From an uncultured Gammaproteobacteria bacterium (GTDB lineage: Bacteria; Patescibacteriota; Patescibacteriia; Patescibacteriales; UBA12465): 64,000 nucleotides of DNA. Where the stretch lies: assembly GCA_964570655.1 (NCBI GenBank), contig CAZMYU010000004.1, positions 49-64,048 on the forward strand, given 5' to 3'. Of the stretch, positions 83 to 64,000 are shown one piece after another. The notes under the pieces were generated by a model, which did not search any database, had not been told where the DNA came from, and saw only the letters and a list, made by a program, of their open reading frames with translations. A program made the translations under genes and the position numbers. Every line of letters begins with the position of its first letter. Positions within the stretch are counted from its first letter, which is position 1.

Positions 83-229
83 CGATGGATTCGAACCCTC
101 CTTCGCTCCTCGACAAACTCGGAGCTACGGGCGGGCAAAGCAGGACAGCTGACCGCGACAACGAAGCCAATCCGGAATTCCGCCGGATTGGCTGAGGCGG
201 AAAGCCATGTCCCCGATGGATTCGAACCC
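83..229. repeat. 16-nt direct repeats CGATGGATTCGAACCC (83-98 and 214-229) bracketing a GC-rich hairpin-rich segment
   Basis: Repeat is the reverse complement of the tRNA T-loop at 2-14; interior holds GC-rich element 96-135 and a perfect 11-bp hairpin at 165-193. Confidence 0.6.
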
Positions 230-8295: not shown

Positions 8296-8337
8296 ATAGC
8301 GCTCTTTTTCGTTTTAAAATTAAGACTTTGGCTCATC

Positions 8338-8378
8338 CACTCTGGCACTCTGGTGCCTGGCACCAGAGTGCCAGAGTG
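8338..8378. repeat. 41-nt perfect palindrome centred on CCTGG
   Basis: CACTCTGGCACTCTGGTGCC-t-GGCACCAGAGTGCCAGAGTG; core GGTGCCWGGCACC shared with 28131-28167. Confidence 0.85.
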
Positions 8379-8441
8379 CTTGATTTTTTGCCTCAAAACT
8401 GATTAAATAGTTGATACTTTAACAGTACTTAAATTATCAAA

Positions 8442-12368: not shown

Positions 12369-12665
12369 ATGAGCAAAAAGAAGACAATAACGCGACTGAC
12401 CATCGCGGAGATCAAAAAAAGGTTGTTACTTAGAAAATTTGGTTATCTTATGGGCATCCCTAGTGATGATGAACCGGCTCGTAAGAAAGCCGAAAAGAAA
12501 TTTTTAAAAGAAGAAGGCCGGATTAAGGATCTGATTGCCAAAGAATTAGATACCCCAATGGATTATCGAAAATTTGGAAACCCCGATCCCACAATAGATA
12601 ATTGGGTGGTCAAAAATCCCGATATCTTAAATTGGTATCAAAATCCTCCGAAAATTGATACCTAA
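12369..12665 (+). CDS. Hypothetical small basic protein
   Basis: ATG 12369 (MSKKKTITRL...); terminator at 12683-12710. Confidence 0.45.
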   Translation: MSKKKTITRLTIAEIKKRLLLRKFGYLMGIPSDDEPARKKAEKKFLKEEGRIKDLIAKELDTPMDYRKFGNPDPTIDNWVVKNPDILNWYQNPPKIDT

Positions 12666-15760: not shown

Positions 15761-15811
15761 GGTACTTTTATTGATTAATAGCAGTATAATATTATTCTAA
15801 TCGTTTGTCAA

Positions 15812-15858
15812 TCCTACTTCGTCCCACTCCGCCTGCGGCTTCCTGGGACTACGCGGGA
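15812..15858. repeat. GC-rich nested-hairpin element (ACTTCG/CTACGC family), copy A
   Basis: TCCT-ACTTCG-TCCC-actcc-GCC-tgc-GGC-ttcct-GGGA-CTACGC-GGGA. Confidence 0.7.
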
Positions 15859-15927
15859 CAAGCCGCTTAACATCACCATCTGATTAATAAAAAAGGCTGA
15901 AGATTAATTCAGCCTTTAAGGTACTTT

Positions 15928-24820: not shown

Positions 24821-24913
24821 TAATTCATATTTTTTTAAAGCCAATTGCTTCACAGCGATTGGCTTTTTGATTTGGTGTTTGGGTTTTAGTAATTTGTAGT
24901 TTGTATTTGGGGG

Positions 24914-24957
24914 GACTGCCAACCCCACTTCGCCAAGGCTACGCGGGGTTAGCAGTC
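24914..24957. repeat. GC-rich nested-hairpin element, copy B
   Basis: GACTGC-c-AACCCC-ACTTCG-CC-aa-GG-CTACGC-GGGGTT-a-GCAGTC. Confidence 0.7.
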
Positions 24958-24975
24958 TATTGACATGAGTGCTAA
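24949..24975 (+). promoter_or_regulatory. CIRCE operator (HrcA binding site) overlapping the hrcA promoter
   Basis: TTAGCAGTC-N9-GAGTGCTAA versus consensus TTAGCACTC-N9-GAGTGCTAA; TTGACA 24960-24965, 17 nt, TAGAAT 24983-24988. Confidence 0.85.
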
Positions 24976-28126: not shown

Positions 28127-28130
28127 AATC

Positions 28131-28167
28131 TGGTGCCAGGCACCATCAATAAAGGTGCCTGGCACCA
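28131..28167. repeat. Paired 13-14-nt palindromes centred on CCAGG / CCTGG
   Basis: TGGTGCCAGGCACCA-tcaataaa-GGTGCCTGGCACCA directly after the dnaK stop. Confidence 0.85.
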
Positions 28168-28175
28168 AAAAACTT

Positions 28176-37504: not shown

Positions 37505-37604
37505 AAATGTGTGAGTGTGAGTAATTTGTAGTTAGGGTTAGGAATTTTTATATAAAAAATTTCCATGCGCTAATTACAAACTACAAACTACTAATTACTC
37601 ATTT

Positions 37605-39361: not shown

Positions 39362-39479
39362 ATAAATTTAAGTAATTTGTAATTAGTAATTTGTATTTAG
39401 CGCTTAGAGCCTAATTATTAAAATTATAAATTTCAACCCCCAAACTACTAACTACTAACTACTAATTACTAACTACTAA

Positions 39480-41150
<1,671 letters not shown>

Positions 41151-41378
41151 GTACCGATTGAAGATTGAAAGATTGAAAATTGAAAGATTGTTATATAAAA
41201 GCCCTTAGCTTAAATGTCTAGGGGTTTTTTGTTGCTTGTTTTTTGATTTTATAGTAAAATATAGGTAAGGATTTAGAAATAAATAATAAATAATTAGCAA
41301 TTATGTTTTCAGATTGTCTAGCTATATTTTCCGTGGTTATCAGCCCTAGATAATTGTGATTTTTTATTTTAATAAACT

Positions 41379-50948: not shown

Positions 50949-50950
50949 TT

Positions 50951-51034
50951 AAGATTAAAAGATTGAAAGATTAAAAGATTGAATGATTATTTAATTAAAA
51001 ATTTTTCAATCTTTCAATTTTCAATTTTTCAATT
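50951..51034. repeat. AT-rich inverted repeat built from GATTGAAA / GATTAAAA words
   Basis: AAGATTAAAAGATTGAAAGATTAAAAGATTGAA ... TTTTCAATCTTTCAATTTTCAATTTTTCAATT. Confidence 0.75.
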
Positions 51035-51042
51035 ATACACTT

Positions 51043-52511: not shown

Positions 52512-53894
52512 ATGGCCTCTAATGTAATTTATACTTGCTCGAAGTGCGGCGCCCAATTTCCAAAATGGAGTGGGCGTTGTTTGGAATGTGGAGCTTGGGG
52601 AACCATTGGCGAAGAGACAGTCGAAAAAGAAGGAGAAGTGCGGGGGCTCAAATCTTTGGATTTGAAAAAAATAAAAGGAGCTAATTTGGTTGATCTCAGC
52701 CAGGTCTCGGCTTTGAGTAGTGAACGCTTGCAAACGGGTTGGCCGGAAATAGATCGAGTTTTAGGTGGCGGTTTAGTAAAAGGCTCGCTTATTTTGCTGG
52801 CTGGTGAGCCAGGAATTGGTAAGTCTACTTTAGCCAATCAAATCACCGATTTACTTGGGGTCAGACCCCAAGGGGAGGGGTCTGACCCCAGCTCTATAAT
52901 CTATGTTTCTGGTGAAGAATCAGCTAGTCAGGTCAAGACTCGCTTAGAAAGATTAGGCTGTGATTTGCATAAGACCAAGTTTATTGGTGAAACTCACTTG
53001 GAAAAAATCATGAGCTCTCTTTTGGAATTGAAACCAGCGCTGGTGATTATTGATTCTATTCAAACTATTTATTCGTCGGAGTTGCCTTCGGAGGCTGGCA
53101 GCTTGAATCAAATTCGAGCAGTGGCGGTCAAGTTTTTAGAACTAGCCAAGACCCATGATATTACTATTTTTCTCATCGGGCATATTACCAAAGACGGGCA
53201 AATCGCTGGGCCCAAATCGCTCGAGCATATTGTGGATACCGTGCTGTATTTAGAAAATGATCAGACCCATTTTTCGATTTTACGAGCAGTCAAAAATCGT
53301 TTTGGTTCGCTCAATGAAATTGGTGTACTAGAAATGACTAGCAGTGGGTTTAAGGAAATAAAAAACCCTTCAGCGATTTTTATTGAAGGGATGAACGAAG
53401 AAATTGCCGGCTCAGCGATGGGGGTGATTTTGGAAGGAACTCGGCCTTTTATTGTTAATATCCAGGCCCTAGTGACCAAAACTATTTTTGGTTATCCCCA
53501 AAGAAAATGTGCGGGTTTTGATGTGAATCGACTTCAGATTTTGTCAGCGGTGCTGAGTCGTAAAAATAAAATCAATTTAAGTACTCAGGATATCGTCCTC
53601 AATTTAGTGGGTGGGCTCAAGACTAATGATCCGGCTTTAGATTTGGCCGCGGTGATGGCCATGGTCTCGTCGTATTTGAATCAACCGCTTCCGCGGGATT
53701 TAATTATTATTGGTGAGATTGGACTAGGCGGAGAAGTTCGGCCGGTCAAAAATTTAGAAACGAGAGTTAAGGAAGCTGTTAAATTAGGTTTTAAAACTAT
53801 TATGGTCCCGGATTCTCTAAATAGTATTAGCGGAGTTAAATTATTGAAAGTGAAAAATATTAGCGAAGCCTTGAAATTATTATCAAATAAGTAG
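52512..53894 (+). CDS. radA: DNA repair protein RadA/Sms
   Basis: CSKCGAQFPKWSGRCLECGAWGT zinc finger, GEPGIGKST, KNRFG, Lon-like C-terminal domain. Confidence 0.95.
   Translation: MASNVIYTCSKCGAQFPKWSGRCLECGAWGTIGEETVEKEGEVRGLKSLDLKKIKGANLVDLSQVSALSSERLQTGWPEIDRVLGGGLVKGSLILLAGEPGIGKSTLANQITDLLGVRPQGEGSDPSSIIYVSGEESASQVKTRLERLGCDLHKTKFIGETHLEKIMSSLLELKPALVIIDSIQTIYSSELPSEAGSLNQIRAVAVKFLELAKTHDITIFLIGHITKDGQIAGPKSLEHIVDTVLYLENDQTHFSILRAVKNRFGSLNEIGVLEMTSSGFKEIKNPSAIFIEGMNEEIAGSAMGVILEGTRPFIVNIQALVTKTIFGYPQRKCAGFDVNRLQILSAVLSRKNKINLSTQDIVLNLVGGLKTNDPALDLAAVMAMVSSYLNQPLPRDLIIIGEIGLGGEVRPVKNLETRVKEAVKLGFKTIMVPDSLNSISGVKLLKVKNISEALKLLSNK
52857..52889. repeat. 33-nt paired-palindrome element lying in frame inside radA
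   Basis: GGGGTCAGACCCC-aagggga-GGGGTCTGACCCC = codons GVRPQGEGSDP between Walker A and YVSGEES. Confidence 0.8.
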
Positions 53895-53906: not shown

Positions 53907-54053
53907 AACGCCTTAGGAATATTGCCCCAAAAACACGGGGTTGCTCCGCTCCTGCGGCTCCGCACCCCTCACAGCTCCTTCGCTCGCCCCCTAACGGGGG
54001 TCCGTGCCTCGCTCAGTCCGCTATGGTTTTTGGTCCAACATTCCTAAGGCGTT
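53907..54053. repeat. 147-nt composite GC-rich element closed by a long imperfect inverted repeat
   Basis: AACGCCTTAGGAATATTG..CCAAAAAC ... GGTTTTTGG..CAACATTCCTAAGGCGTT; inner hairpins GGGGT/ACCCC, CCGC/GCGG, GCCCCC-taac-GGGGGT. Confidence 0.75.
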
Positions 54054-54059
54054 ATCTAT

Positions 54060-54090
54060 CTGTCATCCTGGCGAAGGCCAGGATCCAGGT
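54060..54090. repeat. CTGTCATCC-hairpin-GGATCCAGG element, copy R2
   Basis: 31/31 identical to 23573-23603. Confidence 0.85.
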
Positions 54091-54109
54091 CCGTTTAAGT
54101 AATTTTTAA

Positions 54110-58028: not shown

Positions 58029-58095
58029 TTTTGCTGTCGCAAATTAAAAATTAAAGATTAAAAATTAAAAATTTTTTTATTCACTTCCTACTTAT

Positions 58096-58127
58096 CTGTC
58101 ATCCCCAGCTTGACTGGGGATCCAGGA
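58096..58127. repeat. CTGTCATCC-hairpin-GGATCCAGG element, copy R3
   Basis: CTGTCATCCCCAGcttgaCTGGGGATCCAGGA nested inside the AT-rich inverted repeat 58041-58153. Confidence 0.8.
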
Positions 58128-58247
58128 TTTTTAATTTTTCAATCTTTTAATGATCATTTGACCGATATTAATAAAATATCGCCTTAAGCGATAATTTATG
58201 GTATAATATAGTTATATAAAATTTAAGCACAATTGTCAATCAAACAT

Positions 58248-61562: not shown

Positions 61563-61571
61563 TGCCTCTCC

Positions 61572-61614
61572 AAATGGAGCCAGGCTCCAAGTAATAAAGG
61601 AGCCTGGCTCCATT
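61572..61614. repeat. Paired palindromes centred on CCAGG / CCTGG
   Basis: AAATGGAGCCAGGCTCC-aagtaataa-AGGAGCCTGGCTCCATTT; same layout and AATAAAGG linker as 28131-28167. Confidence 0.85.
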
Positions 61615-63515: not shown

Positions 63516-63592
63516 GCGGAGGGGTGCCCCCACTTCGTCCTACTTCGCCCTTGCGGGCTTCGCAGGACTACGAGGGGCAGGCAGAGCGGTTT
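63516..63592 (+). other. tRNA 5'-half-like fragment (copy 1) interrupted by a 54-nt GC-rich element
   Basis: GCGGAGGGGTGCC + insert + AGAGCGGTTT; the uninterrupted version is at 63634-63656. Confidence 0.6.
63529..63582. mobile_element. GC-rich nested-hairpin element, copy C, at a filled site
   Basis: CCCC-ACTTCG-TCCT-acttc-GCCC-ttgc-GGGC-ttcgc-AGGA-CTACGA-GGGG; boundaries ambiguous by 1-2 nt. Confidence 0.6.
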
Positions 63593-63633: not shown

Positions 63634-63672
63634 GCGGAGGGGTGCCAGAGCGGTTTAATAGGATAGTCTTGC
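63634..63672 (+). other. tRNA 5'-half-like fragment (copy 2, class II tRNA-like acceptor and D-arm)
   Basis: GCGGAGGGGTGCCAGAGCGGTTTAATAGGATAGTCTTG resembles the 5' part of Ser/Leu/Tyr-type tRNAs; no anticodon stem partner or T-arm follows. Confidence 0.45.
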
Positions 63673-63740
63673 CACCGCCTTCGGCGGGGTCCCGCCTTCA
63701 CATAATGTAATATCGGTGGCGGGAAAAACTGTCAGTGTGT

Positions 63741-63986
63741 ATGTGGTATACTTATATATTAAAAAGTAAAAACTTTAATAAATATTATATAGGTCATTGT
63801 GAGGATTTTGACAAAAGATTAAGCCAGCATAATAATGGAAAAACAAAATCTATTAAGGCCTATATTCCTTATGAGTTAATATATTATGAAAATTTTGATT
63901 TTAAGAAGGATGCCTATAGAAGAGAAATGCAAATAAAAAAATATAAAGGAGGTGAGGCATTTAAAAAATTACTAAAATTAATTTAA
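63741..63986 (+). CDS. Small stand-alone GIY-YIG nuclease-domain protein
   Basis: WYTYILKS...KYYIGHCEDFDKRLSQHNNG...PYELIYYENF...AYRREMQIKKY = GIY, YIG, Arg, Glu and Asn positions of the GIY-YIG fold. Confidence 0.8.
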   Translation: MWYTYILKSKNFNKYYIGHCEDFDKRLSQHNNGKTKSIKAYIPYELIYYENFDFKKDAYRREMQIKKYKGGEAFKKLLKLI

Positions 63987-64000
63987 TAATACAGCGGAGG

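Follow-up and report, generated by a model that had tools for sequence, protein, structure and literature searches.

Four short GC-rich sites in the stretch of DNA analysed here (64,000 nt, referred to as the window) share one layout and probably represent a single large family of short (~30–55 nt), non-autonomous and selfish DNA hairpin elements, which in their behaviour resemble REPs and the Rickettsia palindromic elements (RPEs). The unit reads YCCC-ACTTCG-[variable hairpin]-CTACGM-GGGR-CARG and is made up of 24 fixed bases plus the hairpin. The window contains the following copies:

Copy A, 15812–15862, minus strand (the strand of the stable hairpin): 51 nt; the plus strand reads TCCT-ACTTCG-27 nt hairpin-CTACGC-GGGA-CAAG.
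Copy B, 24923–24952, minus strand: minimal 30-nt unit, CCCC-ACTTCG-CCAAGG-CTACGC-GGGG (24923–24948), with a degenerate tail, TTAG (24949–24952).
Copy C, 63528–63581 or 63529–63582 (junction ambiguous by 1 nt), minus strand: 54-nt insertion.
Copy D, 96–139, minus strand: diverged; CCCT-CCTTCG-19 nt hairpin-CTACGG-GCGGGCAAAGC, with a bulged outer stem.

Copy C is a nested double unit with an inner part of 30 nt, CCCC-ACTTCG-[TCCT-ACTTCG-CCCTTGCGGG-CTTCGC-AGGA]-CTACGA-GGGG-CAGG. The CCTTCG...CTACGG subtype to which copy D belongs, in which C-G replaces G.U, was also found in other genomes.

A preliminary description of this DNA had proposed the layout shared by the four copies, and this was borne out by a covariance model (R1) built from an alignment (A1) of 92 copies of other genomes, the window sequence being excluded. 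When the window was searched with filters off, R1 recovered exactly the four sites: copy C (match 63525–63585; 45.0 bits, E 4.8e-11), copy B (24922–24948; 36.7 bits, E 1.2e-8, with the tail unmatched), copy A (15809–15866; 31.9 bits, E 3e-7) and copy D (93–139; 17.7 bits, E 0.004). No fifth copy was detected in the 64-kb window, where the next-best match to R1 had an E of 2.4; the window therefore harbours exactly four copies, a density of one copy per 16 kb. The simple pattern CTTCG-N(4–34)-CTACG had six matches at four sites in the window, all on the plus strand, compared with 0.78 ± 0.92 in shuffled sequences, none of 100 shuffles reaching six. All four copies have the same orientation, although with four copies this is not significant (p 0.125). 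The unit boundaries drawn in the preliminary description needed correcting, as they left out the 3′ tail CARG(C), which belongs to the unit.

Fold of the unit

The structured strand, opposite to that carrying ACTTCG, reads CYTG-YCCC-K-C-GNA-G...C-GRA-G-T-GGGR. It comprises a 5′ CYUG tail, a YCCC/GGGR helix lengthened by one G.U and one C-G pair, a 3 × 3 internal loop and an inner helix. The internal loop is symmetric, with GNA facing GRA, and is closed by C-G and G-C pairs; in its GUA/GAA form it consists of G.A, U-A and A.G. The inner hairpin is variable, and its closing pairs are usually C-G followed by either C-G or T-A.

Analysis of the pairing on A1 showed 94.7% of cells to be paired, with no slid register coming near, and the covariation, which involves both stems, was matched by none of 500 shuffles. 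Pair 9–48 is CG in 66 copies, UA in 18 and UG in four; pair 19–38 is CG in 85 and UA in seven; and pair 20–37 is almost evenly divided between CG (45) and UA (43), with GC in three. The earlier observation that stem sequences differ between copies while pairing is kept thus holds across genomes as well as within the window.

Pair 13–44 is G.U in 52 copies and U.U in 38, and this G.U corresponds to A.C on the other strand. Because its G.U and G.A become A.C and C.T on the complement, the GUA/GAA strand folds better, and it was predicted to be the more stable in 86 of 92 copies (mean folding energy −15.1 versus −11.4 kcal/mol). This asymmetry of the fold is conserved, indicating that one particular strand is the structured one. 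The ACTTCG strand contains no stop codon in any of its three frames.

Bulged-G modules have an asymmetric loop in which an invariant G-U-A lies opposite G-A, together with a conserved U.A trans pair, and the GUA/GAA loop strands had initially been likened to such a module (sarcin-ricin/loop E). The loop of the element is, by contrast, a symmetric 3 × 3 loop, and its middle base varies in lower-scoring relatives, where GUA is replaced by GGA, GCA or GAA, and GAA by GGA; the U.A pair of the module is consequently lost. The conserved feature of the loop is its pair of G.A mismatches and not a GUA/GAA module.

Insertion of copy C and setting of the other copies

The end of the window harbours three head-to-tail copies of the leader and 5′ part of a tRNA-Ser(UGA) gene, which differ in whether they contain the element:

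Filled site, 63516–63592, plus strand: first, truncated duplicate, consisting of the leader and first 23 nt of tRNA-Ser(UGA), with copy C in the D-arm region.
Empty site, 63634–63656, plus strand: the same 23 nt uninterrupted, in the second duplicate.
Third copy, starting at 63994, plus strand: the intact, real tRNA-Ser gene (full tRNA-Ser in contig L149, 836–926).

Copy C therefore has a counterpart without it, and this sole filled/empty pair compares paralogous duplicates, not strains. The sequence GCGGAGGGGTGCC|AGAGCGGTTT is contiguous at 63634–63656, where the uninterrupted 23 nt read GCGGAGGGGTGCCAGAGCGGTTT, and is divided by exactly 54 nt at 63516–63592, with a junction ambiguity of 1 nt. 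Comparison of the filled and empty sites showed no target-site duplication at copy C. In total, two empty sites match copy C, both of them paralogous, and copy C itself sits in what is now a pseudo-tRNA leader. The preliminary description had taken the difference between 63516–63592 and 63634–63656 as evidence of insertion, with an assembly artefact as the competing explanation. Two metagenome contigs of other samples (L001 and L149) have an arrangement and sequence identical to those of the window at copy C; as three independent assemblies thus agree on the 54 nt, an artefact is ruled out and the insertion is real.

The motif GAGGGG is present both in the target of copy C and at the 3′ end of copy C. 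Elsewhere, copies in L121 (4832–4869 and 5808–5845) and L101 (~6640) begin exactly at the CCA/3′ end of a tRNA gene, with the ...CACCA of the tRNA replacing the 5′ YCCCA of the element, a substitution which hints at microhomology at the junction.

The tRNA-Ser region has further features of its own. The second duplicate extends to the anticodon loop, at which point there is a 52-nt GC-rich hairpin (~63672–63723) followed by the 3′ half of the anticodon stem, and a small GIY-YIG nuclease ORF (63741–63986) lies between this duplicate and the intact tRNA at 63994. The segment 63516–64000 has the appearance of a GIY-YIG-carrying sequence that inserted into the tRNA gene and supplied it with a replacement 5′ half. 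Five GIY-YIG homologues were found in ~0.9 Mb, with no obvious enrichment. A tRNA search of the window called two tRNAs only, and the repeat at 63516/63634, which it did not call, was later explained as 5′ fragments of tRNA-Ser.

Copy D, at the other end of the window, sits in a GC-rich block beside tRNA-derived fragments. Positions 1–28 are a tRNA 3′ end, and these are followed by three inverted T-arm-like pieces, ATGGATTCGAAC, at 84–95, 217–228 and 404–415; a 15-nt direct repeat, GATGGATTCGAACCC (82–96 and 215–229), brackets copy D and a second hairpin (163–190). The T-arm-like pieces and the direct repeat may be remnants of integration at a tRNA.

Copies A and B each occupy the gap between a terminator and a promoter, directly upstream of a −35 box. 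For copy A, these are the terminator of a radical-SAM gene (15917–15892) and the −35 box TTGACA (15811–15806) of the next gene on the minus strand. Copy B lies before the hrcA-grpE-dnaK operon, in which hrcA was identified by Pfam, and is flanked by the operator of this operon:

CIRCE operator, 24949–24975, plus strand: TTAGCAGTC-N9-GAGTGCTAA, overlapping the hrcA promoter (TTGACA at 24960).

Copy B adjoins the left CIRCE arm directly, the TTAG in its tail position being the start of CIRCE. Because the element abuts this arm, the long outer stem first assigned to copy B (AACCCC/GGGGTT) has to be divided: part of it is the CIRCE operator of hrcA together with its upstream partner, and not the element. 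A syntenic relative, L139, encodes a PBP2 that is 56% identical (the best match of a metagenome scan with PBP2), followed by hrcA-grpE-dnaK. Its hrcA promoter has CIRCE, TTAGCACTC-N9-GAGTGCTAA, at 12604–12630 with no element before it and, judged by this sequence comparison, is an empty orthologous site for copy B. In the related loci L139–L148, the element is essentially absent.

Distribution of the family and copies inside genes

A search of other genomes for further copies had been suggested at the outset, and these were found at 119 loci or more in a species-representative collection scanned with the pattern CCACTTCG-N(4–34)-CTACGNGGGRCARGC. Among the 124 matches listed, ~100 are genuine hairpin units, the remainder being chance matches in high-GC coding DNA, for example that of Sorangium. 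According to the record labels, the hosts among the matches listed are mostly Patescibacteria, including Saccharibacteria, Peri-/Peregrinibacteria, Berkelbacteria, Roizman-, Woese- and Beckwithbacteria, Parcubacteria/Paceibacterota, WWE3 and Kazan. Other hosts listed belong to Bdellovibrionota, Victivallales/Lentisphaerae, Verrucomicrobiaceae/Akkermansiaceae, Kiritimatiellia, Pirellulales and Rhizomicrobium, and one cultured host, the isolate Geomonas oryzae S43 (NZ_RAHW01), is among them. The Roizmanbacteria chromosome CP066689.1 is another carrier. Low-GC genome bins labelled Gammaproteobacteria or Pseudomonadales also carry the element, although these labels should be treated with caution; the proteins of one such bin (L063) are 46–49% identical to those of the window, which otherwise matches CPR loci best.

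The family includes lineage-specific subtypes, such as the Bdellovibrionota copies that are embedded in GGCGACCAG...CTGGTCGCC. Tandem arrays are present in L112, L126 and L107, and nested units in window copy C and in copies of the L036 type. The array in L112 (3195–3345, minus strand), from a Saccharibacteria bin, consists of three exact 44-nt tandem units in the rplJ-rplL leader, 12 nt past a consensus promoter. Copies are often placed in the loop of another inverted repeat. Scans of viral contigs with two patterns gave almost exclusively chance matches in high-GC coding DNA, with genuine copies in L009 only, and BLAST of the consensus unit against plasmid and phage collections gave no match. 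Rfam had no match at any of the four window sites, either at the gathering threshold or up to an E of 5, and searches of the literature by topic and by sequence strings found no description of the hairpin family.

We defined a copy as intragenic if it was spanned by open frames reaching at least 150 nt on both sides. By this definition 28 of the 101 external copies among the matches listed (~28%) are intragenic, versus 61% of random positions in the same loci, and the element is therefore depleted in genes yet far from excluded. The genes concerned are real and conserved, encoding IleRS, a ValRS-type synthetase, LigA (where two copies are adjacent), TopA, DnaX, GatB and the CCA-adding enzyme, as well as a UvrD-like helicase, kinases and glycosyltransferases. 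In the case of GatB, alignment with solved GatB structures places the encoded PTSLELRGTGF in a variable loop, as additional residues.

The coding strand is the ACTTCG strand in 24 of the 28 intragenic copies and the reverse in four (p 2e-4), so that the weakly folding strand is usually the one in the mRNA. Each of the three sense frames occurs (yielding, for example, PTSLKLRGAS, PHFAKATRGK and PLRQGYAGQA), as do some antisense frames, and the use of all three sense frames argues that there is no constraint at the level of the peptide. Of the 28 intragenic copies, 26 have an inner length divisible by three (p 7e-11), as have 45 of the 73 intergenic copies (p 1e-6); since the fixed bases number 24, whole units also come in multiples of three, as do window copies A (51 nt), B (30 nt) and C (54 nt). 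Length in threes is expected of a family shaped by survival in mostly coding genomes.

Protein-family clustering around the 119 loci listed revealed no recurrent neighbour gene. With respect to flanking ORFs, 26 + 16 copies are located between genes of the same direction (in either orientation), 14 between convergent genes and only five between divergent genes. Intergenic copies occur in both orientations, and the possibility of a strand bias relative to transcription, raised in the preliminary description, was not realised for these copies, which have no fixed relation to transcription. Nor is there a clear bias of orientation with respect to GC skew (66 versus 49). A conserved target is not apparent in the flanks, where only a weak A/T preceding the stem and an A following the tail stand out. 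We searched the window and 1.17 Mb of loci with phmmer for Y1/RAYT or IS200-type TnpA, using approximate IS200 TnpA and E. coli RAYT queries, and found none; among ~120 sampled copies, none was seen to have a RAYT gene beside it.

Comparison with known systems and rival explanations

Among the closest known systems are the REPs that form the GTAG-tagged super-family, together with their RAYT (TnpA-REP) nucleases (PMC3733652; Ton-Hoang / Quentin et al., PMC6006769, PMC8266576). REPs are located mostly between same-direction or convergent genes, with some inside genes, including genes that encode tRNA synthetases or DNA repair enzymes (Di Nocera et al. 2013, PMC3733652). The element described here is likewise a short GC-rich imperfect palindrome present in many copies (four in 64 kb and at least 119 loci elsewhere), with four unpaired, conserved bases on the 5′ side of the hairpin foot, G.T pairs that favour the fold of one strand, and an internal loop between the outer stem and a GC-closed inner loop, as in E. 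coli-type GTAG-3 REPs. It also shares with REPs its occurrence as singletons, dimers and tandem groups, and its gap placement (42 same-direction, 14 convergent and five divergent). The defining tag is different, however, being CYTG in the element and GTAG/GTGG in REPs; the G-T-A-G of the element is internal, formed by the 3 × 3 loop and the first pair of the inner stem, and varies to GGAG, GCAG and GAAG. Further differences are that the inner hairpin varies freely within one genome while the same fixed arms are found across phyla, and that no RAYT gene was found beside the sampled copies. In classical REP systems the RAYT (Y1 HUH) gene is flanked by REPs. REPs co-evolve with their lineage-specific enzyme, and host roles have been proposed for some of them.

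A strict MITE has terminal inverted repeats and a target-site duplication, which distinguishes it from the element and its clean 54-nt insertion without such a duplication. Of the original proposal of a mobile or recombination-spread REP/MITE-like element, the mobile and REP-like part is therefore retained and the strict MITE part is not. Mobility is supported by the insertion relative to two empty paralogous sites, by the empty site in L139, by dispersal at unrelated positions in more than 100 genomes, by tandem and nested copies, by the lack of a recurrent neighbour gene and by the REP-like placement.

RPEs, which PMC3733652 also cites, were reportedly described by Ogata et al. in 2000, RPE-1 being 100–150 bp in length and confined to Rickettsia. 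The likeness to these is one of behaviour, as both are selfish palindromes that lie in frame in essential genes of small AT-rich genomes and add short peptides to their products; the present element is shorter (30–55 bp), occurs in many lineages and has no apparent sequence similarity to RPEs. Lang et al. are said to have described, in 2014, mobile GC clusters and translational-bypass elements (byps) of yeast mitochondria, the byps being skipped by the ribosome. These are also GC-rich hairpins invading coding regions of AT-rich genomes, but byps need no frame, whereas the element keeps an open frame and a length that is a multiple of three. For this reason read-through is a simpler reading than bypassing, and the intragenic copies would be translated as 10–18 extra amino acids.

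HUH/Y1 nucleases, such as RAYT and the TnpA of IS200/IS605, recognise hairpin ends in a strand-specific manner. Miniature IS200/IS605 elements resemble the element in their strand-specific hairpin and in insertion without target-site duplication, and they can therefore serve as a model for a single-strand mechanism; they differ in that their two hairpin ends are unlike each other and their target is a defined tetranucleotide, compared with a single hairpin and a weak A/T preference only. By analogy with these systems and with RAYT/REP, we infer that the element would be moved as single-stranded DNA by a trans-acting enzyme encoded elsewhere in the genome. Such an enzyme would recognise the asymmetric hairpin by its outer helix, its G.A-flanked loop and its 4-nt 5′ tail. 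Only the structured strand forms a stable stem, which depends on G.A and G.T(U) mismatches that have no counterpart on the complement. The element has inserted at least once without target-site duplication, and it settles in terminator–promoter gaps, untranslated leaders, other hairpins and, in frame, genes.

Several findings count against this explanation. No transposase of any kind is linked to the element in the window and 1.17 Mb of loci; a REP-flanked RAYT would be expected somewhere among the ~120 copies and none was seen; the one filled/empty pair sets paralogous duplicates, not strains, against each other; and a strict replication-coupled single-strand mechanism predicts a GC-skew bias, whereas the split of 66 versus 49 is not a clear one. 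A more complete reading is accordingly offered only as a tentative one, which we hold to be possible at somewhat less than even chances: that this is an undescribed hairpin family, centred on CPR and shared with several phyla, which is stop-free on its ACTTCG strand, keeps its length to a multiple of three, leaves the mRNA with its weakly folding strand, invades essential genes in frame and is moved by a single-strand DNA enzyme other than a REP-flanked RAYT. If this were true, the identity of the enzyme would define a new element–enzyme pair and explain part of the odd peptide inserts in CPR proteins. To aminoacyl-tRNA synthetases, ligase, topoisomerase and GatB, the element adds segments of 10–18 residues. 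A hairpin whose asymmetry is conserved implies an enzyme that recognises it, and the cultured carrier Geomonas oryzae S43 makes this testable.

The fixed arms are nearly identical across distant lineages, which is unusual for REPs and could alternatively reflect a conserved host function. Together with the failure to find an enzyme and the lack of a replication-strand bias, this leaves room for a DNA element that serves the host, for example in nucleoid organisation, replication/repair or supercoiling, and is kept by selection and not by selfish spread. The conservation of the arms and of the asymmetric mismatches in very distant lineages would suit such a role, as would the position of two window copies directly upstream of −35 boxes. 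We nevertheless consider it unlikely, since the positions are neither orthologous nor functionally related, copy B is missing from its syntenic relative L139 while L139–L148 as a group are essentially without copies, and insertion in frame into essential genes, together with tandem arrays and nesting, is how a parasite behaves and not a regulator.

Less probable still is a structured RNA motif of the bulged-G/loop E kind that acts in transcripts, e.g. as a protein-binding or stabilising element. The G.U pairs, the G.A-flanked internal loops and the stable tetraloop-like caps, such as CUUG and GCAA, are RNA-like, and transcribed leaders contain some of the copies, namely copy C and, in the leader of rplJ, the L112 array. 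However, the structured GUA/GAA strand is usually not transcribed, being antisense to the mRNA in 24 of 28 intragenic copies, where the mRNA has the ACUUCG strand, while intergenic copies lie both ways; copies A and B are situated between a terminator and a promoter; and the loop is symmetric with a middle base that is not conserved. The lack of an Rfam match even at an E of 5 and of an associated gene family points the same way, and the bulged-G assignment was not upheld by any of these comparisons.

That the element is a peptide insert selected in proteins is very improbable and close to refuted. Many copies appear to be translated in frame and have lengths in multiples of three, but the three sense frames and some antisense frames yield unrelated peptides, intergenic copies are in the majority and include all four of the window, and the base-pair covariation acts at the level of the nucleic acid. 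Chance resemblance or assembly artefact, to which the weakness of copy D (E 0.004) and the shortness of the hexamers might have pointed, can be given virtually no weight and is refuted for copies A, B and C, as R1 recovers all four sites, shuffled sequences fall short and three assemblies agree on copy C.

Several other classes were considered and dropped, namely k-turns, archaeal bulge–helix–bulge introns, attC sites, DGR hairpins, CRISPR and ToxI-like arrays. For the integron attC site, the consensus contains no GTTRRRY box, and the window copies lie 9–39 kb apart among housekeeping genes.

CPR genomes are ~1 Mb in size and are thought to be streamlined. The window still holds one copy per 16 kb in addition to several other families of hairpin repeats. 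The element creates spurious or extended ORFs and breaks short-read assemblies, and R1 can be used to mask it in the annotation of CPR genomes. Three short-read contigs of the window organism (L001, L002 and L003) end at repeats, either the duplicated tRNA leader or the GC-rich block at the window start, indicating that repeat families fragment assemblies of this genome.

Among the other repeats in the window, a family of near-perfect palindromes of the GGTGCCAGGCACC / GGAGCCAGGCTCC type is located just after genes at 8337–8385, 28127–28170 and 61566–61612. GC-rich hairpin families are present at 52852–52900 (GGGGTCAGACCCC...GGGGTCTGACCCC) and, in two copies, at 54068–54092 and 58093–58125 (TGTCATCC...GGATCCAGG). 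A 110-nt GC-rich composite (53922–54031) lies between radA and recG, inside a 19-nt inverted repeat, and has the piece CTCCGC..CTGCGGCT in common with the inner hairpin of copy A. Inverted repeats that are long and AT-rich, and consist of the short motifs GTAATTTGTAGTT/AACTACAAATTAC and GATTGAAAGATTG/CAATCTTTCAATC, are found at 24889–24905, 37505–37604, 39362–39485, 41151–41190, 50949–51042 and 58040–58150, and flank several operons, including the groES/groEL region.
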